DNA of 64,000 bases from Escherichia coli (GCF_013315695.1 NZ_CP054353.1), one strand, 5' to 3'. Counted from the stretch's first letter, positions 1 through 39,244 are shown. Numbers and translations are program-made. The notes: generated from the sequence alone by a model not told the origin.

Positions 1-1215
1 AACTTCAGCCGGATCGAGCTGTTTTTGCAGTGAATGGCCGGGTTGCAACGTCAACTCCATACCAATTCGGGTGTCATTTTCCCCCTGTTTACCCTGCCGT
101 TGCTCGGCACTAAAGGAGATCAGGGGAACGGGGGTGTAACTCAAACCTGCGGTAATCGCGTGAGGATCATTTTGTCGCTCGTCTTTACCAAACAGCGCCA
201 CTTCATCGCCATAATATTGTTCATAGACCAGCTTGCCGCCCAGCTGCGGCCAGGCCGGTAACCAGCCTTCGGCGCGAAGATCCCACCCGTTCGCCGGACG
301 TGCTTCATAGTCATTGTCGAGTTCCGGTGCACTACGCCAGTTACTGAGGCGCAGATAACCGTTGCCGCTCAGTTTCAGGTAATCGCGCCAGTATTCAACG
401 CCCATCCCGGTTCGGGTGTGATAGCGGGTCAGGTCATGATCGATAAACATATTGACGCCAGACATCCAGCTCGATGTGAAATAACGCCAGCCGATACCGT
501 GGTTGGTTTGAGTGCGATCATCCGTACGGTGAAGTGTGTGCTGGCTGAAGACCAGGTTATACGGCGTTTCGTACCAGGGATGGAGAAATTCAAATGACGA
601 GCTTTTAAGGCTGAAATCTTCATCCACACCAAGAGATACCCGGGCAGTTCCCCAACGACTGAGCCAGTCCGTTGCCTGCGCAGAGGCAGAAGAAGCCACC
701 CAGCCACGCGCCATACTCGCAGCCTGTTCGCTGTCCATATCGCGCGCTAAAAGTGTTCCGCTTTGCTGCGCCATTTCCGCGACCTGCATTTGCGGATCTT
801 TGCCGTCGCGCTCCATCTGCATTGCTTTCAGGTTGCGCGCTTCAGGGCTATTACTGTTAATGAGGGGCACATCTATTTCATCGCCCTGACGCACATTGTC
901 AAAGCCCCGAGCAAAGGTACGGAACTGATTCAGGCGACGTAATTCATCAACGGTGATACCAAAGCGTGCCGCGACCGTTGGTGGCGATTCCAACGCACCC
1001 AGGGTATATGGAATAGTTTTAACGTTCGGCAGGATCAGTGACGCGGCAGTATCCGAGTGCGCAGGGTTAATATGCGTAGGGGCAGCTGCCATAACAGGGA
1101 ATATAGTTTGTGTTATCAGGCAAATACCGGCGGTCAGACGACGTAAACGATCCCCCAATCCACATATGGTGTTATCGCCCCGACGATCGCCATTCCCATG
1201 AGCTTTCCCTGCCAT
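1..1215 (-). CDS. Intimin/invasin-family inverse-autotransporter adhesin, N-terminal part; gene continues beyond window start
   Basis: Minus-strand frame open from ATG at 1215 to position 1 (no in-frame stop in 405 codons, checked triplet by triplet; absent from ORF track because edge-truncated). Translation contains a LysM-like segment (KTIPYTLGALESPPTVAARFGITVDELRRLNQF...DNVRQGDEIDVP) followed by a beta-barrel-like region. Possible RBS AGGGA upstream of the ATG. Confidence 0.5.
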   Translation of the reverse strand, partial: MAGKAHGNGDRRGDNTICGLGDRLRRLTAGICLITQTIFPVMAAAPTHINPAHSDTAASLILPNVKTIPYTLGALESPPTVAARFGITVDELRRLNQFRTFARGFDNVRQGDEIDVPLINSNSPEARNLKAMQMERDGKDPQMQVAEMAQQSGTLLARDMDSEQAASMARGWVASSASAQATDWLSRWGTARVSLGVDEDFSLKSSSFEFLHPWYETPYNLVFSQHTLHRTDDRTQTNHGIGWRYFTSSWMSGVNMFIDHDLTRYHTRTGMGVEYWRDYLKLSGNGYLRLSNWRSAPELDNDYEARPANGWDLRAEGWLPAWPQLGGKLVYEQYYGDEVALFGKDERQNDPHAITAGLSYTPVPLISFSAEQRQGKQGENDTRIGMELTLQPGHSLQKQLDPAEV

Positions 1216-1416
1216 TTGTCATCCCTGTCGCTATGCGTTCAGATTAAATGACCTTTCTTTAACATGAGGGAAAATGATGATTCATGATTAGCAAATGATG
1301 AATACAGGCGGAATAATGGAAATAACAACAAGATAAGAACAATACCTGATCAAGGGTTATCAGGGGGAAGAACAGGAGAGCTTTCCCGCCAGAGCAATAA
1401 CCCTCCTGTAAATACG

Positions 1417-2601
1417 TTACTTCATTTTCACCTTTGCGGTGACCAATAACGCCGTCAGCAACATCAATGTGCCGGACAACATCAACGGCGAAGTCAGACC
1501 AATATTATCCAGCGCATAACCGCCGATTGCCGCGCCACAGGTATTAGCAAGCTGAATAACCGCCACCTGAATAGACCCGGCTTTTTCTGCCTGATCGGCC
1601 AGTGAGCGGGTGATCCACGTTGACCAGCCGACAGGAACCAATGCAAAAGTTAGCCCCCAGATAATCGCCACGCCGGTAGCAACGATTTTATCGCTTCCCC
1701 ACAACGTCAGCACCAACGCACTCACAGCCAGTATTAACGGCGCGCCTGCTAAGGCCAGTTTTACCGAACGTTTAAGAATGAACGACGAAAGCGACGTACC
1801 AATAAAGCTGGCGATACCAAAACTCAACAGCACCAGCGTTAAGCCATCCACGCCGAATCCCGCCAGGTTCATATACACCGGGCGAATATACGTGAAGAAA
1901 GCAAACTGCCCGGCGAAAGACATGAAGATGGCGATCATCCCTGCCATCACACCCGGACGTTGTAATAAGCGGAAAGTATTTTGTTTCTGATGCGAGGGTT
2001 CGCCTGGCAGCGAAGGCAATGATTTGATAATCCAGAAAATACACAGCACGCCCATCACCGCCGCCGCATTAAAGACATTGCGCCAACCGATAAGCTCGCC
2101 TAAAAAACTGCCCAACGGTGCGGCAATCACCAGCGCAATAGAAACCGCGCCGAAGATCACCGACAGCGCCTTCGGCACCGTACGCGGCGGTACCAGACGC
2201 ATGGTCAGCGACGCCGACATCGCCCAGAACCCACCCAGCGCCAGCCCCAGACAGGCACGACCGATTAAAAGCAAACTGAATGAGTTAGCAAAGGAAACCA
2301 GCAAGCAGGAGAGCGTCAGCAAAACGGCAAACAAAATAACAACATAGCGGCGGTCAGTGGCCTGAATTGTCTGGGTAATAAACAAACTGGCAAACATTGC
2401 CACAAAGGCGGTCACGGTCACCGATTGCCCGGCAACCCCTTCCGAAATGCCTAAATCCTGGGCCATTGGCGTCAACAAACTGACGGGCAAAAACTCAACG
2501 ATAATCAGACAGGCGACGCAAAACGCCACCGAGAAAACGGCTGACCAGTTCGGTCGGGTGATGGCATCCGCGCCGCGGTTTTCGGCAATAAATTCACTCA
2601 T
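1417..2601 (-). CDS. nepI: Purine ribonucleoside efflux pump NepI (MFS transporter)
   Basis: Translation [27 protein letters not shown]... recognised as NepI; 12-TM MFS-like hydrophobic profile. Start placed at internal ATG 2601 rather than ORF-track start 2649. Confidence 0.88.
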
Positions 2602-2879
2602 GGTGTTACCCGTGGCATGTTTCAGGGGAAAAGCCGACCACTTTAACATTGAAATGTGTGACGCATTTAACGTTTTTGCAACTTTTACGGTGTTGTGGGA
2701 AAAGTTCGAGGCTACTCGAAGAAATAAAAATCATAGGGCAAGGTGATATGCATTTTCGCAATGGGGTTGGGAATAAGGGATAAAGTATTGCACTTGGTGA
2801 TATACTTTAATAACAGGATCTCAACGATATACGCGTGTTTAAAACCAAATAGTTTGCAAGGGAAGCCAGGTCTCATGCA

Positions 2880-3188
2880 ATGACAGATGAAGAGTTGTGC
2901 CGGGCCATTTTAGAAACGGAACAAGGTAAAGCTGATGTACTTGGTGGTGGCGTTTTTAAAAAGCGCCTTCACCGAAATCGTGAGCGTGCAATTATTCTGG
3001 CAAAAGGGGGAAGCAATTGGTTTTACACGTTTTTATATGCAAAACAGGATATGTCGAACATCAATAGTCAGGAACTGGCTGGGTTTCGTGAACTTGCAAA
3101 GCATTATGCCTTCCTGACGAAAGCCCAACTAACAGCAATGATTAACACTAAAGAACTGACAGAGATCTGCTATGACTGCAAAAACTAA
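2880..3188 (+). CDS. RelE/ParE-superfamily (HigB-like) toxin candidate, 102 aa
   Basis: Small basic protein with LGGGVFKKRLHRNRERAIILAKGGSNWFYTF motif resembling RelE/ParE-type addiction toxins; 17-nt overlap with the downstream HTH gene; toxin-first gene order as in higBA. Confidence 0.5.
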   Translation: MTDEELCRAILETEQGKADVLGGGVFKKRLHRNRERAIILAKGGSNWFYTFLYAKQDMSNINSQELAGFRELAKHYAFLTKAQLTAMINTKELTEICYDCKN

Positions 3189-3495
3189 ATTTAAAAGTCC
3201 TGCATTTGAGGCTATTCACAGCGCAGCGGCTGGATTGTCCAGCGTCGATGCTATTTCTGCCGAAACGATGCGTACTTTTGACAAAGCCTGCCTGACCAGC
3301 GTGCAAGACTTACAACCTGTTGAGATAAAAGCACTGCGGGAAAAATTAAAAGTGAGTCAGCCCGTCTTCGCTCACTATCTCAATACCAGCGTTTCAACTG
3401 TACAAAAATGGGAAAGTGGCGCTAAACGCCCCAATGGCATTTCATTAAAACTGCTCAGCATTGTGCAAAAACACGGGCTGGAGGTGCTGCTGTAA
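3172..3495 (+). CDS. XRE-family helix-turn-helix antitoxin candidate (HigA-like), 107 aa
   Basis: C-terminal HTH_XRE-like segment (LREKLKVSQPVFAHYLNTSVSTVQKWESGAKRPNGISLKLL); overlaps upstream toxin-like ORF. Confidence 0.55.
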   Translation: MTAKTKFKSPAFEAIHSAAAGLSSVDAISAETMRTFDKACLTSVQDLQPVEIKALREKLKVSQPVFAHYLNTSVSTVQKWESGAKRPNGISLKLLSIVQKHGLEVLL

Positions 3496-3529
3496 ATAGA
3501 ACGTAGATAATGCGTTCACCTACTGTCAG

Positions 3530-3605
3530 TTCCAATACCGGATGCGGCGTGAACGCCTAATCCACCCTACAGGTCAGGCGCGGTCTGTAGGCTGATAAGA
3601 CGAAG
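3530..3605. repeat. REP (repetitive extragenic palindromic) element cluster
   Basis: CCGGATGCGGCGTGAACGCC-type palindromic unit between the antitoxin-like gene and yicN. Confidence 0.55.
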
Positions 3606-23405: not shown

Positions 23406-25117
23406 AGGCTATCCTTCGCGTCGGGAGTAAAGGTTACGGCTGGGTCGTGACGATGCCGCCAGCTGTCAAAAATCAGGTAGACAATCACTACGGCAGCGAT
23501 GAAATAACTGATCATCGCTAACCAGCGCGTACCGTAGCCGCCGAATTCAGCCAGCCCGGCATAGACGCCAATCATAGCGAACAGGATGCCAATTGACGCG
23601 ATCTTGACGTTTTTCCACGGTTTCATGTCCACCGCAAACGCATCTTTGAAGGTGAACGGCGTGGCGCGCGGTTTGATAAAACCGATCACCAGCATCACGA
23701 CCACGTTGATGCAGAACGTACAGGCCAGCACATAGAGGAAATGGAAGTCGAACTTCACCAGATAGTTGATGGTGATGTAGCTGATTATGCCAATCCCCAT
23801 CGCCACTTTTGCCGCCAGCGCTGGAATGCGCGGGAAGAAAAAGCCCATAATGATGATGGTAACCAGCGGCACGTTGTAAATGCCGTTGAGCTGTTTCATC
23901 CAGCTATACAGCCCCTGCGGCGCGTTGGCGATCCACGGCGCTACCAGCACCGAAACGATGGCGATAAAGAAACCAAATTTGCGCCCGACGGTGACCAGCT
24001 GCTGCGGCTCGGCATTCTGGTTAATGATGCGACGGTAAATACCCATACTGAATAACGTACTGGCGCTATTCAGAAAGCCGTTGAAGGTACTGATCACCGC
24101 ACCAAATAACACCGCGCCGAAGAAACCCACCAGTGGCACTGGCAGAACGTTATTGACCAGCGTCGGGTAGGCCATGTCGGCTTTCGGTAGATCCTGATAC
24201 AGATGAAACGCAATCAACCCTGGCAGCACCAGTACCAGCGGGTCGAGCATTTTCAGCACCGCCGTTAACAGCGCCCCCTTTTGCCCTTCCGCCAGGCTTT
24301 TTGACGCCAGCGTGCGTTGCACGATGCCCTGATTTGTACACCAGTAAAAGGTGTTCACCAGAATCAAACCGGTAAATGCCGCGCCAATCGGCAAGGGATC
24401 GGTCGGGCCACCGACTGAGTTTAATTTCTCGGCGTGAACGGTGGTGAGTTGCTCAATGCCCTGCATAAAGCTGCCCTTGCCCATCGCGATCAGGCCAAAT
24501 ATCGGCACCATCAACCCGCCAATAACCAGCCCAATACCGTTGATGGAGTCCGCCACTGCCATTGCGCGCAGTCCGCCGATCACCGCATACAAAATTCCCG
24601 CCAGACCAAGCAAAATTACCAATAGCCAGATAGCCGCACCGTGAGAAATCTGTAGCGATTCCCCGACGTGAAACAGGCTGTTGAGCGCCAACGCGCCGGA
24701 GTAGAGAACAATCGGCAGAAAGCAGACGCCGGTGGCAATGAGGAAGCAGAAGTCGATGATAATACGCGTCGTTTTATCATAACGTTCCTCCAGAAAATCG
24801 GGGATGGTGGCAATGCCGCGCTTCAGATAGCGCGGTAAAAAGATTAGCGCGAGGAAGATCAGCGTCACTGCAGAGGTGACTTCCCAGCCCATCACCGACA
24901 TGCCGCTTTTGTAGGCCTGCCCGGAAAGGCCGACCAGTTGTTCCGTGGAAAGGTTGGTTAGCATTAACGAAGCGGCAATAACCGGCGCTTTTAGTGAACG
25001 TCCGGCAAGAAAATAGCCTTGTTGCGATCCGGTATCTGTTTTACGGACCTTCCACCAGGTGATGATCGCCACCAGCAGCGTAAAACCGACAAAACTCAAG
25101 ATTTGTAACGAATTCAT
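23402..25117 (-). CDS. yidK: Sodium:solute symporter family transporter YidK
   Basis: 571-aa multi-TM SSF-type protein upstream of and translationally coupled to yidJ. Confidence 0.8.
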   Translation of the reverse strand: MNSLQILSFVGFTLLVAIITWWKVRKTDTGSQQGYFLAGRSLKAPVIAASLMLTNLSTEQLVGLSGQAYKSGMSVMGWEVTSAVTLIFLALIFLPRYLKRGIATIPDFLEERYDKTTRIIIDFCFLIATGVCFLPIVLYSGALALNSLFHVGESLQISHGAAIWLLVILLGLAGILYAVIGGLRAMAVADSINGIGLVIGGLMVPIFGLIAMGKGSFMQGIEQLTTVHAEKLNSVGGPTDPLPIGAAFTGLILVNTFYWCTNQGIVQRTLASKSLAEGQKGALLTAVLKMLDPLVLVLPGLIAFHLYQDLPKADMAYPTLVNNVLPVPLVGFFGAVLFGAVISTFNGFLNSASTLFSMGIYRRIINQNAEPQQLVTVGRKFGFFIAIVSVLVAPWIANAPQGLYSWMKQLNGIYNVPLVTIIIMGFFFPRIPALAAKVAMGIGIISYITINYLVKFDFHFLYVLACTFCINVVVMLVIGFIKPRATPFTFKDAFAVDMKPWKNVKIASIGILFAMIGVYAGLAEFGGYGTRWLAMISYFIAAVVIVYLIFDSWRHRHDPAVTFTPDAKDSL

Positions 25118-25283
25118 CTCATAGCCCTTATTTATGTTTATGTCCCGGACGCATGAATATAGGGAGAGGTAAAATGCGTCGGGTCAGGCAGTCAGATTCT
25201 TAAAATACAAACATCGTATCCCTGAACGGATTGTTTTCTGTTAAGTTCAGGTTGTGAGCATAATTCGCCGGAGGGATATTAAA

Positions 25284-29112
<3,829 letters not shown>

Positions 29113-29407
29113 TTCCACATCCTCTTTTCTCAATTCTGTAAGTAGGAAGCCTGATTGGTTATGCGGCAGGCCTGGAGCGAGGATAGGAAGATGCGATCGG
29201 CAGAACATGACGACCCAATGGGATTCGTGATCGCTTTCATGCTTTTCGTTGGGCGGTAGAGATCTACGTTTTCGCAAAAAAGTAGACATCTGTGAGCACT
29301 GGTACACAGCAACGAACACATCTTTAAAAAAAAGATGTTTTTTCAATCGATTAAGCAGAACTTGTGGGCGCATTACCCGGGCTTGCAGGCAAAAAAGAGA
29401 TCTAGAG

Positions 29408-29695
29408 ATGATCTACAAAAGCATTGCGGAGCGGTTAAGAATTCGACTTAACTCCGCGGATTTCACGCTAAACAGCCTTCTTCCCGGTGAAAAAAAGCTG
29501 GCGGAAGAGTTTGCGGTATCGCGGATGACCATCCGTAAAGACATTGACCTGCTGGTAGCGTGGGGGCTGGTGGTCCGCCGCCACGGTAGCGGCACTTACC
29601 TGGTGCGCAAAGATGTACTGCATCAAACCGCCAGCCTGACCGGGCTGGTGGAGGTGTTAAAACGCCAGGGAAAAACGGTCACCAGCCAGGTGTAA
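29408..29695 (+). pseudogene. yidP: GntR-family regulator YidP, 5' fragment truncated by IS4
   Basis: MIYKSIAERLRIRLNSADFTLNSLLPGEKKLAEEFAVSRMTIRKDIDLL... (GntR winged HTH) ends after about 96 codons at a stop supplied by the IS4 terminus. Confidence 0.8.
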
Positions 29696-31118
29696 TGCCA
29701 GTCAGTTAAGCAACTGACTGGCTCTTTTTCGGGGCTGTGGGGTATTTCCAGGGCCTCTCCTTTACCACTCTCGGGAAGGCCCTTTCCCTTCTTGTCGGTA
29801 ATTTCACAAGTTGTCCCATACTTGCAAGATCGCGCATCAGCTCCGGTATACGTCCCGGTGAAGCGCCCTGCAATGTCATCAGCATTCTCATCACCATTCC
29901 GCATGATTCTGAGAAACTCAGTTGATTCGGCCAGTAACCTTTCAGATGTTCCGCCATTTTAATCATCTGATATCTCACCAGATTATAAGCCAGTAAGACA
30001 CCCCACAGCTCTTGCTCCACAAGCTCCGGTTTTTTACTTCTCAGCGTCAGCCTGCTCAGTTGCATCGTCTGTTTTATCTCCCTGTATCCCAGTTCGATTT
30101 CCCAGCGATGACTGTACAGATCCGCCATTTCTCCTCCGGGGAAGCGCATGGCGTCCGTCATCGACGTCAGCAGATGGCAGACTTTTCCTTTGCGCGTCAC
30201 GGTCAGCAGGCGGGCTGTCACTTCATTTCCCAGTCCCGGCCACTTTTTTCGTGCCTGCGGGCTGGTTTTCAGCTTCACCAGATGATCGCCTTTACCCAGT
30301 TTTCTGATCTCTTCATATTGCGCTCCCTTTCTGAGAGGTATCATCCAGTGGCGGTGTTCTCCCGCCAGGCTCCAGGCATTTAACAGTCCCAGTGAGTAAT
30401 AACCTTTATCCATTAACGTCAGAGTGTTATCGCCGGTTTGTTCTATAAGTTGCTCAGCAAGCTCATTTTCGCTGTTCTTCATCGTGCCGAAGGCTGCAGC
30501 CGTCAGCAGATGGCTGGTCAGTTCCATCTGGCAGACCATTTTGACCTGCGGGTAGAGCGCCGGGTTCCCGGCATGTGTCTGGCGGGGGAAGGCTGCATCG
30601 TTCTCTGGTGTATCCGGTGTGCGCCAGAACACACCATCGATGGCCAGCAGGGTCAGGCCGCACCAGTGCGGATGCGGCGTGGCGTTATGCCAGAGCTGCG
30701 CTGTTTTCGTGAACACGCGGCGGACAGCCTCACTTCCCAGGCGCTGGCGGGCCTGAATAACGGCACTGGGGGCAACGAAGGGGCGATTGCCCGGCAGCAT
30801 GATGTCCAGGCGATTCACAATCTGGTGAAGAGGTTCTTTACGCTCAAGCGCCATGCCAACAATACACCAGACCATCATTTCGAGGGGAAGACGGCGCTTG
30901 CGTAGCGTTACAGTACCTGATTCGGCAAGGCAACGAGAGATGAGTTCGGGGTCGAGGTAATCCCCCAGAGAAGTCAGTGGGTTACGCAGAGAATCGTAAC
31001 GGGATACCAGATCAAGAGCCTGTCCAATGTGCATAAAAAAATCCGGAAACAAGTGAGCGTTTCCGGATTCTTACACAGCCACTGGATCGGTCAACTGATC
31101 CTTAACTGATCGGCATTA
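29693..31118 (-). mobile_element. Insertion sequence IS4 (1426 bp)
   Basis: Terminal inverted repeats TAATGCCAGTCAGTTAAG (29693) and TAATGCCGATCAGTTAAG (reverse complement, ending 31118); encloses the IS4 transposase; flanking sequences ACCAGCCAGGTG and CCCCCCTTTGAG are not a direct duplication. Confidence 0.9.
29706..31034 (-). CDS. insG: IS4 transposase
   Basis: Translation [41 protein letters not shown]... recognised as IS4 transposase (DDE family), about 442 aa. Confidence 0.9.
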
Positions 31119-31207
31119 CCCCCCTTTGAGACTATTTTAGCCACCAGCAAGAAACGTCTATACTCGCAATTTACGCAGAACTTTTGACGAAAGGACGCCA
31201 CTTCATT

Positions 31208-32704
31208 ATGGCTCACCCTCATTTATTAGCGGAAAGAATTTCCCGCCTGAGCAGTTCGTTGGAAAAGGGGCTTTATGAACGTAGCCACGCCATCCGCTTG
31301 TGTTTATTAGCGGCATTAAGTGGTGAAAGTGTGTTCCTCCTTGGCCCGCCAGGTATTGCCAAAAGTTTGATCGCCCGGCGCTTAAAATTCGCCTTTCAGA
31401 ATGCCCGCGCGTTTGAATATCTGATGACTCGCTTCTCCACGCCGGAAGAGGTTTTTGGTCCCCTTTCTATTCAGGCGCTAAAAGATGAAGGGCGCTATGA
31501 ACGTTTAACCAGCGGTTACCTGCCGGAAGCAGAAATCGTCTTTCTGGATGAGATCTGGAAAGCGGGTCCGGCAATTCTTAATACCCTGCTCACCGCCATT
31601 AACGAGCGCCAGTTCCGCAACGGTGCACACGTAGAAAAAATCCCGATGCGCCTGCTGGTGGCGGCCTCCAACGAGCTGCCGGAAGCAGACAGCAGTCTGG
31701 AAGCGTTATATGACCGCATGCTGATTCGTCTGTGGTTAGATAAAGTGCAGGATAAAGCGAATTTCCGCTCCATGCTGACCAGTAAACAGGATGAAAACGA
31801 CAATCCGGTTCCTGCCTCCTTGCAGGTCACAGATGAAGAATATGAACGCTGGCAGAAAGAGATTGGTGAAATTACGCTGCCCGATCATGTATTTGAGCTG
31901 ATTTTTATGCTGCGCCAGCAACTGGATAAATTACCGGATGCGCCTTATGTCTCGGATCGTCGCTGGAAAAAAGCGATTCGATTATTGCAGGCCAGCGCCT
32001 TTTTTAGCGGTCGCAGTGCTGTTGCCCCGGTTGATCTCATTTTGCTGAAAGATTGCCTGTGGTATGACGCGCAAAGCCTGAATTTGATACAACAACAAAT
32101 CGATGTATTGATGACCGGTCATGCCTGGCAACAGCAAGGGATGTTGACCCGCCTGGGCGCGATTGTGCAACGTCACCTGCAACTACAGCAGCAACAAAGC
32201 GATAAAACAGCCTTAACGGTAATTCGTCTGGGCGGCATTTTCAGCCGTCGTCAGCAGTATCAACTCCCTGTTAACGTTACTGCTTCCACTCTGACTCTGC
32301 TGCTGCAAAAACCGTTAAAACTGCATGATATGGAAGTGGTTCATATCACCTTTGAGCGTAGCGCGCTGGAACAGTGGCTGAGCAAAGGTGGTGAAATTCG
32401 CGGCAAACTAAACGGTATCGGCTTTGCCCAGAAACTGAATCTGGAAGTTGATAGCACCCAACATCTTGTTGTACGCGATGTAAGTTTACAAGGCAGTACG
32501 CTGGCACTTCCCGGTTCATCGGCTGAAGGTCTGCCAGGTGAAATAAAACAACAACTGGAAGAGCTTGAAAGCGACTGGCGCAAGCAACACGCTTTATTCA
32601 GCGAACAGCAAAAATGTCTGTTTATCCCTGGCGACTGGTTAGGTCGCATTGAAGCCAGCCTACAGGATGTCGGTGCACAGATTCGCCAGGCGCAACAATG
32701 CTAA
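31208..32704 (+). CDS. ravA: AAA+ MoxR-family ATPase RavA
   Basis: Translation [31 protein letters not shown]..., Walker [11 protein letters not shown]; start at 31208 (ORF-track 31184 rejected). Confidence 0.9.
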
Positions 32705-34149
32705 CGCTGGATACGCTTAATGTGATGCTGGCCGTCAGCGAAGAGGGATTGATCGAAGAGATGATCATCGCGCTGCTGGCCTCACCGCAGCTGGCGGTCT
32801 TCTTTGAAAAATTCCCACGACTGAAGGCGGCTATCACTGATGATGTTCCCCGCTGGCGTGAGGCGCTGCGCAGTCGGCTGAAAGATGCCCGAGTCCCGCC
32901 GGAACTCACCGAAGAGGTGATGTGCTATCAGCAAAGCCAGCTCCTCTCCACGCCGCAGTTTATTGTGCAGCTACCACAGATCCTGGACTTACTGCATCGT
33001 CTGAATTCCCCATGGGCAGAACAAGCCCGACAGTTGGTTGATGCTAACAGTACGATCACTTCAGCGTTACACACGCTTTTTCTCCAGCGCTGGCGTTTAA
33101 GCCTGATCGTGCAAGCAACGACGTTAAATCAGCAGCTATTAGAAGAAGAACGCGAACAACTGTTGAGTGAAGTTCAAGAACGCATGACGCTGAGCGGGCA
33201 ACTTGAACCGATTCTCGCAGATAACAATACCGCAGCTGGTCGTCTGTGGGATATGAGCGCCGGTCAGCTTAAACGTGGCGACTATCAGTTGATTGTGAAA
33301 TACGGTGAATTTCTTAACGAACAGCCGGAACTGAAACGTCTGGCAGAACAGCTGGGGCGTTCCCGGGAAGCCAAATCAATACCGCGCAACGATGCGCAGA
33401 TGGAAACCTTCCGCACCCTGGTGCGCGAACCGGCGACGGTTCCTGAGCAGGTTGATGGTCTGCAACAAAGCGATGATATTTTACGTCTCCTGCCGCCAGA
33501 ACTGGCGACACTAGGGATAACAGAACTGGAGTATGAGTTTTACCGTCGGCTGGTGGAAAAACAGTTGCTCACCTATCGCCTGCACGGTGAGTCGTGGCGT
33601 GAAAAAGTGATCGAACGCCCGGTGGTGCATAAAGATTACGACGAACAGCCGCGCGGACCGTTTATTGTCTGTGTGGATACTTCCGGCTCAATGGGCGGCT
33701 TTAATGAACAGTGTGCGAAAGCGTTCTGCCTGGCCTTGATGCGCATTGCTCTCGCTGAAAACCGGCGCTGCTATATTATGCTATTTTCCACCGAGATCGT
33801 CCGTTATGAGCTTTCAGGCCCACAAGGCATCGAACAAGCAATCCGTTTTTTAAGCCAGCAGTTTCGTGGCGGCACCGATCTTGCCAGTTGTTTTCGCGCC
33901 ATTATGGAACGCTTGCAAAGCAGGGAATGGTTTGATGCCGATGCGGTGGTGATTTCTGATTTTATCGCCCAGCGGTTGCCTGACGACGTGACGAGTAAAG
34001 TGAAAGAGCTACAGCGGGTACATCAGCATCGCTTTCATGCCGTGGCGATGTCGGCACATGGCAAACCCGGCATCATGCGCATTTTCGATCATATCTGGCG
34101 CTTTGATACCGGGATGCGAAGCCGCCTGCTCAGACGCTGGCGGCGATAA
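32698..34149 (+). CDS. viaA: VWA-domain protein ViaA (RavA partner)
   Basis: 483 aa, C-terminal von Willebrand A domain with MIDAS motif (VCVDTSGSM); overlaps ravA stop. Confidence 0.88.
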
Positions 34150-34153
34150 ACAA

Positions 34154-35146
34154 TTACAGCAGAGAAGGGACGCTCTCGCGAACAGCAGCTGGCCATACAC
34201 CACACTGAACCTGGCCGATATGTGGCAGTTGCAGCAGCAGCATGGTCAAACGAGACTGCCCGATACCGCCGCCGATGGTCTGCGGCATTTCACCGCGCAG
34301 CAGCGCCTGATGCCACTCCAGCTCCAGGCGATCTTCGTCACCGGTCAGCGCCAGCTGATGCTTCAGCGTGTCGGCATCCACGCGGATCCCCATGGAAGAA
34401 AGCTCAAACGCATCTTCCAGTACCGGGTTCCATACCAGAATATCGCCGTTCAGACCCGCATGGCCCAGCTCTGACGGGGTGCTCCAGTCATCATAATCCG
34501 GTGCGCGCACGTCATGGCGATGACCATCGCTCAGCTTGCCGCCAATCCCGACCAGGAATACCGCGCCAAGATCTTTCGCAATCGCCCGCTCACGCCCTTT
34601 GGCATCGAGCTCCGGATAACGAGACAGTAACTCCTGGCTGTGTACGAAGTGGATCTGATCCGGCAGGAACGGAGCCAGGCCAAACTCTTCGCTAACCGCA
34701 GCTTCGGTTGCTTTAATTCCCTCCCAGATCGCCTCTACCGTGCTTTTCAGAGTCGAGAATTGACGCTCGCCGTCGCCCATTACGCGTTCCCAGTCCCACT
34801 GGTCAACATAGACCGAGTGCAGCGGGGAAAGACGGTCTTCATCGGGGCGAAGGGCTTTCATGTGCGTGTACAGCCCTTCGCCCGCGCTGAAGTCGTGTTG
34901 CCCTAAGGTCTGACGTTTCCACTTCGCCAGTGAATGAACCACTTCGAACTGGGCATCAGGCAGAGCTTTCACTTTTACCTGCACCGCTTTTTCACAGCCC
35001 GACAAGTTATCCTGCGTGCCATCCCCCACACGGCTAAGAATCGGCGCCTGGACTTCGATCAGCCCCAGACGTTCTTCCAGTTGACGAGAAAAGTGAGATT
35101 TCACGAAGCTAATTTGGCGTTGTTTGGCAATGTAAGCGGTTTTCAT
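34154..35146 (-). CDS. asnA: Aspartate-ammonia ligase (asparagine synthetase A)
   Basis: 330 aa, translation [50 protein letters not shown]... Confidence 0.93.
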
Positions 35147-35297
35147 TTTTTATACTCCTGCGTCCTGTTGCTTATGATTAAGCAACAAAAACCGACACAC
35201 ATGCAATAATCATTCAATAAAAAGCCTCACGTACTTTTGATTCATTAAAAAAGAAGGCTAAAATAGAATGAATCATCAATCCGCATAAGAAAATCCT

Positions 35298-35756
35298 ATG
35301 GAAAATTATCTGATCGACAATCTGGACCGAGGCATCCTGGAAGCATTAATGGGCAATGCGCGCACCGCTTACGCCGAACTGGCGAAACAATTTGGCGTCA
35401 GTCCGGGGACGATTCACGTTCGAGTAGAGAAAATGAAGCAGGCGGGGATCATTACCGGGGCGCGTATTGATGTCAGCCCGAAGCAGCTTGGTTATGACGT
35501 AGGCTGCTTTATCGGCATTATATTAAAGAGCGCCAAAGACTATCCTTCCGCGCTGGCAAAGCTGGAAAGCCTCGATGAAGTCACTGAAGCCTATTACACA
35601 ACCGGCCACTACAGCATCTTTATAAAAGTGATGTGCCGTTCGATCGATGCTCTCCAGCATGTACTTATCAACAAGATCCAAACAATTGATGAAATTCAGT
35701 CCACCGAGACACTGATCGTCCTGCAGAACCCGATCATGCGTACCATTAAGCCCTGA
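35298..35756 (+). CDS. asnC: Lrp/AsnC-family regulator AsnC
   Basis: 152 aa, translation MENYLIDNLDRGILEALMGNARTAYAELAKQFGVSPGTIHVRVEKMKQAGII...; divergent from asnA. Confidence 0.93.
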   Translation: MENYLIDNLDRGILEALMGNARTAYAELAKQFGVSPGTIHVRVEKMKQAGIITGARIDVSPKQLGYDVGCFIGIILKSAKDYPSALAKLESLDEVTEAYYTTGHYSIFIKVMCRSIDALQHVLINKIQTIDEIQSTETLIVLQNPIMRTIKP

Positions 35757-35845
35757 TCGGCTTTTTTAATCCCATACTTTTCCACAGGTAGATCCCAACG
35801 CGTTCACAGCGTACAATACGCCACTCTTAATAAAGGTGGCGGTTT

Positions 35846-36289
35846 ATGGCAGATATCACTCTTATCAGCGGCAGCACCCTCGGCGGTGCCGAATATGTAG
35901 CAGAACACCTGGCTGAAAAGCTGGAAGAGGCGGGTTTTACCACCGAAACGCTGCACGGTCCGCTGTTGGAAGATTTATCTGCCTCTGGGATCTGGCTGGT
36001 TATCAGCTCAACCCACGGTGCCGGAGATATTCCGGACAACCTTTCTCCTTTCTATGAAGCATTGCAGAAACAGAAGCCCGATCTTTCTGCGGTCCGCTTT
36101 GGCGCAATCGGTATTGGTAGTCGTGAATATGACACCTTTTGTGGGGCTATTGATAAACTCGAGGCTGAACTCAAAAATTCCGGTGCAAAACAGACGGGCG
36201 AAACACTGAAGATCAACATTCTTGATCACGACATTCCGGAAGATCCGGCAGAAGAATGGCTGGGATCGTGGATTAATTTACTCAAATAA
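35846..36289 (+). CDS. mioC: Flavodoxin-like protein MioC
   Basis: 147 aa, translation MADITLISGSTLGGAEYVAEHLAEKLEEAGF...; adjacent to oriC. Confidence 0.92.
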   Translation: MADITLISGSTLGGAEYVAEHLAEKLEEAGFTTETLHGPLLEDLSASGIWLVISSTHGAGDIPDNLSPFYEALQKQKPDLSAVRFGAIGIGSREYDTFCGAIDKLEAELKNSGAKQTGETLKINILDHDIPEDPAEEWLGSWINLLK

Positions 36290-36303
36290 GTATACAGATC
36301 GTG

Positions 36304-36579
36304 CGATCCACTGTGGATAACTCTGTCAGGAAGCTTGGATCAACCGGTAGTTATCCAAAGAACAACGGTTGTTCAGTTTTTGAGTTGTGTATAACCCCTC
36401 ATTCTGATCCCAGCTTATACTGTCCAGGATCACCGATCATTCACAGTTAATGATCCTTTCCAGGTTGTTGATCTTAAAAGCCGGATCCTTGTTATCCACA
36501 GGGCAGTGCGATCCTAATAAGAGATCACAATAGAACAGATCTCTAAATAAATAGATCTTCTTTTTAACACCCAGGATCC
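36304..36579. other. oriC: Chromosomal replication origin oriC
   Basis: Between mioC and mnmG: DnaA boxes TGTGGATAA (36312-36320) and TTATCCACA (36488-36496), dense GATC (Dam/SeqA) sites, and three AT-rich 13-mers (CTAATAAGAGATC, AATAGAACAGATC, AAATAAATAGATC) forming the unwinding element at 36510-36560. Confidence 0.9.
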
Positions 36580-36667
36580 CAGGTCTTTCTCAAGCCGACA
36601 AAGTTGAGTAGAATCCACGGCCCGGGCTTCAATCCATTTTCATACCGCGTTATGCGAGGCAATCACC

Positions 36668-38557
36668 ATGTTTTATCCGGATCCTTTTGACGTCATCATC
36701 ATTGGCGGGGGTCATGCAGGCACCGAGGCCGCGATGGCCGCGGCGCGTATGGGTCAACAGACTCTGCTTTTGACACACAATATCGACACTCTGGGGCAGA
36801 TGAGCTGCAACCCGGCGATCGGCGGTATTGGGAAGGGACATCTGGTAAAAGAAGTGGATGCACTCGGCGGTCTGATGGCGAAAGCGATCGATCAGGCGGG
36901 TATCCAGTTTAGGATACTAAACGCAAGCAAAGGACCGGCGGTTCGCGCTACCCGAGCTCAGGCAGATCGTGTGCTCTACCGTCAGGCGGTACGTACGGCG
37001 CTGGAGAACCAACCGAACCTGATGATCTTCCAGCAGGCGGTTGAAGATCTTATTGTCGAAAACGATCGCGTGGTCGGTGCCGTTACCCAAATGGGACTGA
37101 AGTTCCGTGCCAAAGCTGTCGTGCTCACCGTTGGAACGTTCCTCGACGGTAAAATTCATATCGGTCTGGATAATTACAGCGGTGGCCGTGCTGGTGATCC
37201 GCCGTCCATTCCGCTTTCTCGCCGTTTGCGTGAACTGCCGCTGCGCGTTGGTCGTCTGAAAACCGGGACACCACCGCGTATTGATGCTCGAACCATCGAC
37301 TTTAGCGTACTGGCGCAACAGCATGGCGATAACCCAATGCCGGTATTCTCGTTTATGGGCAATGCGTCCCAGCATCCCCAGCAGGTGCCGTGTTATATCA
37401 CTCATACCAACGAGAAAACCCATGATGTGATCCGCAGTAACCTCGATCGTAGCCCAATGTACGCAGGGGTGATCGAAGGTGTCGGCCCACGCTACTGCCC
37501 GTCGATCGAAGACAAAGTCATGCGCTTCGCCGACAGAAATCAGCATCAGATCTTCCTTGAACCGGAAGGGCTGACCTCAAACGAAATTTATCCGAACGGT
37601 ATCTCCACCAGCCTGCCGTTCGATGTGCAGATGCAAATCGTCCGCTCCATGCAGGGGATGGAAAACGCAAAGATCGTGCGTCCGGGTTATGCCATTGAGT
37701 ATGACTTCTTCGATCCACGCGACCTGAAACCGACGCTGGAGAGCAAGTTTATCCAGGGGCTGTTCTTTGCTGGTCAGATTAACGGCACTACCGGTTACGA
37801 AGAAGCCGCTGCGCAAGGTTTGCTGGCTGGTCTTAACGCTGCCCGTCTGTCTGCTGACAAAGAAGGTTGGGCTCCGGCGCGTTCTCAGGCGTATCTCGGC
37901 GTACTGGTTGATGACCTGTGCACTTTAGGAACCAAAGAACCGTATCGTATGTTTACTTCGCGCGCAGAATATCGTCTGATGCTGCGCGAAGATAATGCGG
38001 ATCTGCGTTTGACTGAAATCGGTCGTGAACTGGGCCTGGTGGATGACGAACGTTGGGCGCGCTTTAACGAGAAACTTGAGAATATCGAGCGTGAGCGTCA
38101 GCGTCTGAAATCGACCTGGGTAACCCCGTCGGCGGAAGCTGCAGCCGACGTGAATGCTCACCTGACTGCGCCACTTTCCCGTGAAGCCAGTGGTGAAGAT
38201 CTGCTGCGTCGTCCGGAAATGACTTATGAAAAATTAACCACGCTGACGCCGTTTTCCCCTGCGTTGACAGACGAACAGGCGGCGGAACAGGTTGAGATTC
38301 AGGTTAAATACGAAGGTTATATCGCGCGCCAGCAAGATGAGATCGAAAAGCAACTGCGTAACGAGAACACCCTGCTACCAGCAACGCTGGATTACCGCCA
38401 GGTATCCGGTCTTTCTAACGAAGTGATCGCCAAACTTAACGATCACAAACCGGCCTCTATCGGTCAGGCTTCGCGTATTTCTGGCGTCACGCCTGCGGCC
38501 ATCTCCATTCTGCTGGTGTGGCTGAAAAAACAGGGTATGCTGCGTCGTAGCGCATAA
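36668..38557 (+). CDS. mnmG: tRNA uridine 5-carboxymethylaminomethyl modification enzyme MnmG (GidA)
   Basis: 629 aa, FAD-binding motif [16 protein letters not shown], recognised as MnmG. Confidence 0.95.
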
Positions 38558-38620
38558 CGCATTAAAAATGCCTGGTAAGCACCCGCTTACCGGGCAACGC
38601 ATCAAGAACAGGTAATCACC

Positions 38621-39244
38621 GTGCTCAACAAACTCACCTCTCTGCTGAAAGACGCAGGAATTTCGCTTACCGATCACCAGAAAAACCAGCTAATTGCCTA
38701 CGTGAATATGCTGCATAAATGGAATAAAGCGTACAACCTGACTTCGGTCCGCGATCCTAATGAGATGCTGGTACGCCATATTCTCGATAGCATTGTGGTG
38801 GCACCGTATCTGCAAGGTGAACGGTTTATCGATGTCGGCACCGGACCAGGACTGCCTGGCATTCCACTCTCTATCGTGCGTCCTGAAGCCCACTTCACGT
38901 TGTTGGATAGCCTTGGTAAACGCGTGCGTTTCCTTCGTCAGGTGCAACATGAGCTTAAACTGGAGAATATTGAGCCAGTACAGAGCAGGGTAGAAGAGTT
39001 TCCTTCTGAGCCGCCATTTGATGGCGTAATTAGCCGCGCTTTTGCCTCTCTGAACGATATGGTGAGCTGGTGCCACCATCTTCCTGGTGAGCAAGGTCGT
39101 TTCTACGCGCTGAAAGGCCAAATGCCGGAAGATGAAATCGCTTTGTTGCCCGAAGAATATCAGGTCGAATCAGTGGTTAAACTTCACGTTCCGGCCCTGG
39201 ATGGCGAACGTCATCTGGTGATGATTAAAGCAAATAAAATTTAA
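38621..39244 (+). CDS. rsmG: 16S rRNA m7G527 methyltransferase RsmG (GidB)
   Basis: 207 aa, SAM-binding motif [14 protein letters not shown]. Confidence 0.93.

Follow-up and report, generated by a model that had tools for sequence, protein, structure and literature searches.

The window analysed here is a stretch of 64,000 nucleotides of Escherichia coli DNA. Its first 1,215 positions hold a minus-strand gene fragment, identified by sequence comparison as the 5' part (codons 1-405) of iatC, also named air or eaeX, which encodes an inverse autotransporter adhesin and is cut by the window edge. Translation of positions 1-1215 gave a frame that runs from an ATG at 1215 to base 1 and stays open over all 405 codons, as had been stated in a preliminary description of the window. 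Because no stop codon lies inside the window, the frame is absent from the mechanical ORF list, which consists of ORFs with a stop inside the window. A chance ORF was ruled out by the length of the frame together with its homology; the probability of such an open frame in random sequence is approximately 4e-9 [(61/64)^405 by our arithmetic]. An in-frame stop is located two codons upstream, so that ATG 1215 is the earliest possible start; a weak Shine-Dalgarno-like AGGGA is found 6 nt upstream of it. The same ATG is used by PGAP in genomes that are 100% identical here, where nepI adjoins the gene and the label is either 'iatC, inverse autotransporter adhesin IatC' or 'air, inverse autotransporter adhesin EaeX/Air'.

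The identity of the gene was examined by a megablast search of positions 1-3000 against 5,426 complete E. coli genomes. The 1,215-bp 5' part was present in 754 of these, always as a single chromosomal copy. The 405 residues of the window frame are identical to the first 405 residues of the full-length IatC of strain AF3 and of the Air protein of strain MS 21-1. NCBIfam model NF040978 (IatC N-terminal equivalog domain; 1,065 positions, cut-off 2,400 bits) matched the 405-residue fragment with 998 bits (4.6e-300) over positions 1-405, which is all that the fragment can cover. The full-length AF3 protein, from a genome identical to the window, scored 2,948.5 bits, above the cut-off. Judged by these comparisons, positions 1-1215 are the 5' end of iatC (air/eaeX), an accessory E. 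coli adhesin that is already known, named and partly characterized.

In K-12, yicS and nepI are only 40 bp apart, and a BLAST search of the window against K-12 gave homology at this locus over 1417-2695 only, ending exactly at the nepI stop codon (1417-1419, minus strand), which is the right-hand junction between island and core genome. The gene had been described beforehand as probably accessory; the 40-bp gap in K-12 and its occurrence in 754 of the 5,426 genomes bear this out, and the yicS-nepI interval is the insertion site of the accessory eip/eilA island to which iatC belongs. Since K-12 homology stops at 1417, the 201 bp that separate the nepI stop from the iatC start (1216-1416, minus strand) are island DNA and are presumed to be the regulatory region of iatC. 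Scanning of 1000-1700 gave no sigma-70-like promoter on the iatC coding (minus) strand. One terminator-like hairpin follows nepI (1364-1345, minus strand); such sites are at least as frequent in shuffled sequence.

The island of AF3 spans approximately 14.6 kb and carries genes for a SycD/LcrH-like chaperone, YopB/SseC-like and IpaD/SipD-like translocon genes, eilA and then iatC, the last being convergent with eilA. The full island is also present in MSB1_4I and MS 21-1. For enteroaggregative strain 042 the eip island has been described as eicA, eipB, eipC, eipD, eilA and eaeX (PMC4210603). The GC content is 35-41% in the eip/eilA part, and within iatC it varies between 39% for the tip and 62% for the repeats. 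The eilA gene (12412-14108 of locus L001) is annotated as frameshifted in AF3 and is intact in MSB1_4I and MS 21-1, the sequences being otherwise near-identical.

The frame begins with a long N-terminal signal-peptide region (residues 1-45; 1081-1215, minus strand), predicted from hydropathy and conservation to consist of a polar extension, an RLRR n-region and a hydrophobic core, LTAGICLITQTIFPVMAAA. The basic RLRR stretch is followed by the core at residues 25-47, where hydropathy peaks, and then by AAA-P. Within it, RRLTAGICLITQ is kept in K-12 YeeJ and in paralogues. The annotated start Met of K-12 yeeJ aligns with Leu20 of IatC (TTG codon, 1156-1158; the ATG is at 1213-1215), so that an internal iatC start with a shorter and more canonical signal peptide is possible, namely one of 26 residues from TTG 20 compared with 45 from the ATG. 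Directly upstream of the Leu20 position lies a loosely conserved (L/I)CG(L/M)G motif common to IatC, YeeJ-like and IatD-like proteins, and its conservation therefore favours the longer N-terminal form. The start of iatC may be either ATG codon 1 or TTG codon 20.

A LysM domain follows at residues 66-117 (865-1020, minus strand) and would be periplasmic. It is divergent: the alpha2-beta2 loop is longer, and LGALES replaces the usual xxGD/ET motif, where most relatives have xxGE(T/S), with Leu at the usual Gly position of GD/ET. With the Pfam LysM model (PF01476; gathering threshold 20.9 bits) the window sequence scored below threshold, at 13.3 bits for the 405-residue fragment and 17.4 bits for a trimmed segment, and tests at the level of the family and of the fold were therefore needed. 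Homologues of the periplasmic segment found through a word index were mostly short IatC/YeeJ fragments, too uniform for a profile, and an exhaustive search of representatives was used instead. Using phmmer with residues 53-216 against 1.84 billion representatives, 405 relatives were obtained, nearly all of them large inverse autotransporters; among them was an 800-residue protein with eight classical LysM repeats, each of which aligns with IatC residues 63-103 (E = 1.4e-17). When orthologous 61-residue segments were taken singly, 46 of 47 matched PF01476 (best 1.3e-09). A profile built from the orthologous segments matched solved LysM chains (LytE, PDB entry 8i2e, 1.1e-16; PDB entry 4uz2, 7.3e-14), and the LysM family profile of the same segment also matched Ecp6, AtlA and plant LysM receptor kinases.

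The fold was predicted with AlphaFold2 for IatC residues 45-216 from a 32-sequence alignment. The model has a beta-alpha-alpha-beta unit at residues 65-117 with a pLDDT of approximately 95 (E23-27, H34-40, H45-51, E69-73). In a Foldseek search of this unit against the PDB the best 40 or so matches were all LysM domains, including the intimin LysM (PDB entry 2mpw); the TM score against isolated LysM structures of 47-49 residues was 0.76-0.83, with an r.m.s.d. of approximately 2 Å. Because the family profile, the matches of the orthologues, the phmmer search and the predicted fold agree, we take the segment to be a genuine but divergent LysM. The LysM domain placed before the barrel in the preliminary description is thus upheld by the family profile and the predicted fold, although the lone Pfam score falls below threshold. 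The LysM of the IatC/YeeJ/IatD-like subgroup lies below the Pfam threshold and is therefore missed where annotation relies on Pfam only.

The closest guide to what this domain does is YeeJ of K-12, which shares 69% identity with IatC over the anchor, the same LysM motif (PYTLGALES...LNQFRTFARGFDNVRQGDE-DVP) and the same architecture. YeeJ is a paralogue at another locus (asnT-yeeJ) with a different passenger, and it scores 1,180 bits with NF040978 against the cut-off of 2,400. Its LysM-dependent peptidoglycan binding and its promotion of biofilm have been shown experimentally (Martinez-Gil et al., 2017; PMC5595812): the LysM is required for peptidoglycan pull-down, and deletion of the LysM lowers surface display (PMC5595812). 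The same paper states that peptidoglycan binding has been shown for intimin too (PMC5595812). By analogy with YeeJ, the LysM of IatC would likewise bind peptidoglycan. It could instead have kept the LysM fold and lost glycan binding, serving only as a dimerization or spacer module, which would fit the scores of 13.3 and 17.4 bits against 20.9, the LES found in place of the Gly-Asp/Glu-Thr loop with Leu at the Gly position, and an alpha2-beta2 loop longer than that of a canonical LysM. We regard this as unlikely, since K-12 YeeJ has the same LGALES and the same long loop and needs its LysM for peptidoglycan pull-down (PMC5595812), and since the predicted fold (pLDDT of approximately 95) superposes on glycan-bound LysM structures at approximately 2 Å.

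Between the LysM and the barrel, residues 124-186 (658-846, minus strand) form a predicted helical periplasmic linker, which AlphaFold2 modelled as three helices with a pLDDT of only 58-72. The Pfam IAT_beta model (PF11924) reaches into this region from residue 148. The inverse-autotransporter beta-barrel itself is assigned to residues 187-405 (1-657, minus strand). With the window fragment IAT_beta gave 9.5e-100 over residues 148-405 (profile positions 2-261 of 279), and in the full-length protein it extends over residues 148-423 (profile positions 2-279); some 18 residues at the end of the barrel/linker model are therefore missing from the window. Crystallized barrels matched IatC residues 186-404 with values of 1e-68 for invasin (PDB entry 4e1t) and 1.3e-55 for intimin (PDB entry 4e1s). 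The assignment to the intimin/invasin family of inverse autotransporters, made earlier from the sequence alone, is confirmed by the IAT_beta match and by these two barrels, and the profile matches proposed at that time as a check are present for the barrel and for the LysM, the latter at family level with the single sequence below the Pfam cut-off.

The coding sequence for the remainder of the protein lies outside the window. At 1-25000 and 39001-64000 the window is matched with 100% identity by AF3 and MSB1_4I, which share one intact protein of 2,351 residues (WP_001572097.1). Instead of meeting a stop just past the window edge, the frame continues there for 1,946 codons. The barrel is N-terminal and the passenger C-terminal, with Big_1 and Invasin_D3 repeats from residue 537 of the full-length protein of an identical genome, outside the window. 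In the 100%-identical genomes the passenger, likewise outside the window, comprises 8-23 Big_1 and 12-27 Invasin_D3 stretches together with Invasin_D4, and the last 185 or so residues match invasin D4-D5 (PDB entry 1cwv) with 3.6e-19. The Ig-like repeats and tip that were expected beyond the edge are accordingly found in the two window-identical genomes, and the protein ends in an invasin D4-D5-like manner. For the source genome itself, we infer the part of iatC beyond the 405 codons from genomes that are identical over the flanking 25 kb.

This bears on whether the gene is functional in the source genome. If iatC were a decaying pseudogene there, the 405 codons would be a surviving 5' end, with a frameshift or a repeat-array deletion further on. 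Such decay has occurred in CE10, the orthologue of which is annotated as a frameshifted, incomplete pseudogene; long genes built of tandem repeats readily undergo slippage and deletion, and eilA, the reported activator, is frameshifted in AF3. Against this, AF3 and MSB1_4I, with 100% identity over 25 kb + 25 kb, both encode the intact 2,351-residue protein, and the iatC coding sequence is intact in 13 of the 14 genomes in which the annotation was inspected, CE10 being the exception. We consider a pseudogene in the source genome very improbable.

The passenger contains a tandem array of 291-bp units, each encoding a 97-residue Ig-like domain, with 84-86% likeness between units; AF3 has five copies and MS 21-1 has 20. 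The arrays lie outside the window, at 16314-17762 of locus L001 and 11949-17762 of locus L002. Between genomes the array ranges from about two to 20 copies, corresponding to proteins of 2,070-3,806 residues and iatC lengths of 6,213-11,421 nt (14 inspected genomes and SMS-3-5). The set of lengths was made up of the 13 intact inspected genes, of which those of AF3 and MSB1_4I share an allele, and the published length of SMS-3-5, giving 13 lengths; the figures for AF14 and IAI39 are our own arithmetic. Besides the 7,056-nt reference allele, eight lengths are a whole number of 291-nt steps away from 7,056 nt, and four others miss such a step by 3-30 nt.

Among strains that are 99.9-100% identical in the flanks, five copies are found in AF3 and MSB1_4I, approximately 13 in AF14 and 20 in MS 21-1. 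Collapse of repeats during assembly is a caveat on these copy counts, yet the units are 14-16% divergent and the five-copy allele is present in two independent assemblies. The counts contrast with the report by Goh et al. (2019), according to which no evidence indicated that IatC varies in its tandem-repeat count (PMC6714894). On balance, the IatC/Air passenger appears to be a rapidly evolving rod of variable length, which changes by whole 291-bp units even among near-identical strains. A change in the number of repeats could adjust the reach of the tip past LPS or capsule, or it could alter antigenicity. Variation in 97-residue steps between close relatives matters for typing, for quality control of assemblies and possibly for adhesin function.

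IatC was named by Goh et al. (2019), who reported that the SMS-3-5 protein is surface-exposed by immunofluorescence and promotes biofilm in K-12 (PMC6714894). In the same study IatC showed neither autoaggregation nor binding to extracellular matrix (ECM), and LysM and C-type-lectin domains were predicted (PMC6714894). The SMS-3-5 protein (EcSMS35_4024; PMC6714894) has the architecture described here, with a predicted signal peptide, LysM, barrel, Big_1 repeats and a lectin-like cap, and the NCBIfam IatC model aligns over its whole length with the protein of the window-identical genome. The SMS-3-5 gene has a published length of 8,802 nt compared with 7,056 nt in the window-identical genomes, which thus have exactly six 291-bp units fewer.

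The gene is known separately as air, for the 'Air adhesin' or 'enteroaggregative immunoglobulin repeat protein'; it is routinely used as a marker when E. coli is typed for virulence genes (PMC3256949; PMC10288081). Air, EaeX and strain 042 are not mentioned by Goh et al. (2019), who named iatC (PMC6714894), and neither Air nor IatC is mentioned in a review of the interplay between T3SS and T5SS (PMC7312957). As far as later papers describe strain 042, its Air/EaeX lies in the same island order: an eicA-like chaperone gene, eipB/C/D-like translocon genes, eilA and the adhesin. In an account that we cite through a later paper, modulation of eaeX and of the eip genes was attributed to EilA, with effects on adherence and biofilm (Sheikh, 2006, via PMC4210603). 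The proteins named IatC (AF3) and Air (MS 21-1) differ by one 1,455-residue repeat block and two substitutions. Because they differ in nothing else, iatC and air/eaeX are the same locus, and IatC and Air/EaeX are two names for alleles of it, with no difference in kind.

Of the solved structures, those of invasin from Yersinia pseudotuberculosis gave the best matches to both the IatC barrel (4e1t, 1e-68) and the tip (1cwv, 3.6e-19). Invasin is not known to contain a LysM domain, and its passenger comprises only five domains. When the IatC tip is aligned with invasin, the disulfide Cys (Cys907) is conserved and the position of Asp911 is occupied by Gln. In invasin numbering, we take Asp911 to be the integrin-binding residue and Cys907 to be the disulfide Cys of D5. 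Because Gln is found at the Asp911 position, an invasin-like integrin interaction of IatC seems unlikely. Intimin of EPEC/EHEC has the same order of parts as IatC, with LysM, barrel (4e1s, 1.3e-55), Ig-like domains and a lectin-like tip, whereas the iatC locus lacks a LEE or Tir context. With the NCBIfam intimin model NF033627 (equivalog cut-off 1,400 bits), the window fragment scored 221.7 bits and the full-length protein 341 bits, both below the cut-off. The models for SinH, YchO/YchP, Ilp and YrIlm gave only distant matches far below their cut-offs, for fragment and full-length protein alike.

Genuine orthology of IatC to intimin or invasin, with action through binding to Tir or beta-1 integrin, is hardly credible, and we reject it in view of the equivalog scores, the genomic context and the Asp911 position. 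The 50-60% similarity of its barrel to those of invasin and intimin and the alignment of its tip with invasin D4-D5, Cys907 included, are set against intimin-model scores of 222 and 341 bits versus 1,400, a location in the eip island where neither LEE nor Tir is close by, Gln in place of Asp911 and the lack of ECM binding by IatC (PMC6714894).

We therefore read positions 1-1215 as the membrane-anchor module of IatC (Air/EaeX), a type Ve adhesin of an accessory eip/eilA island that would work by an intimin/invasin/YeeJ-like mechanism, and give this reading a probability of roughly 0.93. The long N-terminal signal peptide would direct Sec export. In the periplasm the LysM (residues 66-117) would bind peptidoglycan, probably aiding dimerization, and would stabilize IatC in the envelope. 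The helical linker would lead to a 12-stranded beta-barrel (residue 187 onward), which is expected to be inserted into the outer membrane by the Bam complex, and the C-terminal passenger, encoded past the window edge, would be threaded outward through it. From the window-identical genomes, the passenger is predicted to be a rod of approximately 19 Ig-like domains that includes the variable array of 97-residue repeats, with a lectin-type tip resembling invasin D4-D5 at its end. Published work would give this protein a function in surface display, biofilm and the promotion of aggregation and adherence, presumably under the HilA-like EilA encoded by the neighbouring gene.

Several other features of the window were recorded. 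Positions 1-29,691 are collinear with AF3 and MSB1_4I, and positions 29,692-64,000 are on the opposite strand, an arrangement that is inverted compared with all close complete genomes. The junction is a copy of IS4 (approximately 29,690-31,050). In the reference genomes IS4 occurs as two inverted copies with approximately 74.5 kb between them: one interrupts a gene for a GntR-family regulator close to yidE, the other lies between kup and ravA, and both dnaA and oriC fall within the intervening segment. No single place covering at least 80% of positions 25,001-39,000 was found in the 5,426 genomes (0/5,426). Either IS4 has mediated a strain-specific inversion that takes in the replication origin, or the assembly has been joined wrongly at a 1.4-kb repeat.

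An 840-bp insertion that is absent from K-12 lies between nepI and yicN (2696-3535). It contains a RelE-family toxin gene (2880-3188; Pfam RelE, 8.9e-31) that overlaps an HTH/MqsA-like antitoxin gene (3172-3495); the toxin gene is frameshifted in IAI39 and CE10. Three consecutive genes annotated 'hypothetical protein' (481, 160 and 211 residues) are located on the minus strand at 12544-15549, between uhpA and ilvN, and gave no Pfam or PADLOC match at E <= 0.01; the third is without annotation in MS 21-1. As uhpA and ilvN are presumably adjacent in K-12, the three-gene segment looks like another small accessory insert. In the neighbourhood of glmS, glmU and the atp operon, positions 39,001-64,000 carry an lpf-O113-type operon for long polar fimbriae as well as a gene annotated 'type III effector protein', which is labelled 'hypothetical protein' in AF3; the fimbrial operon and this gene are further accessory genes of the adhesion/virulence type in the window.
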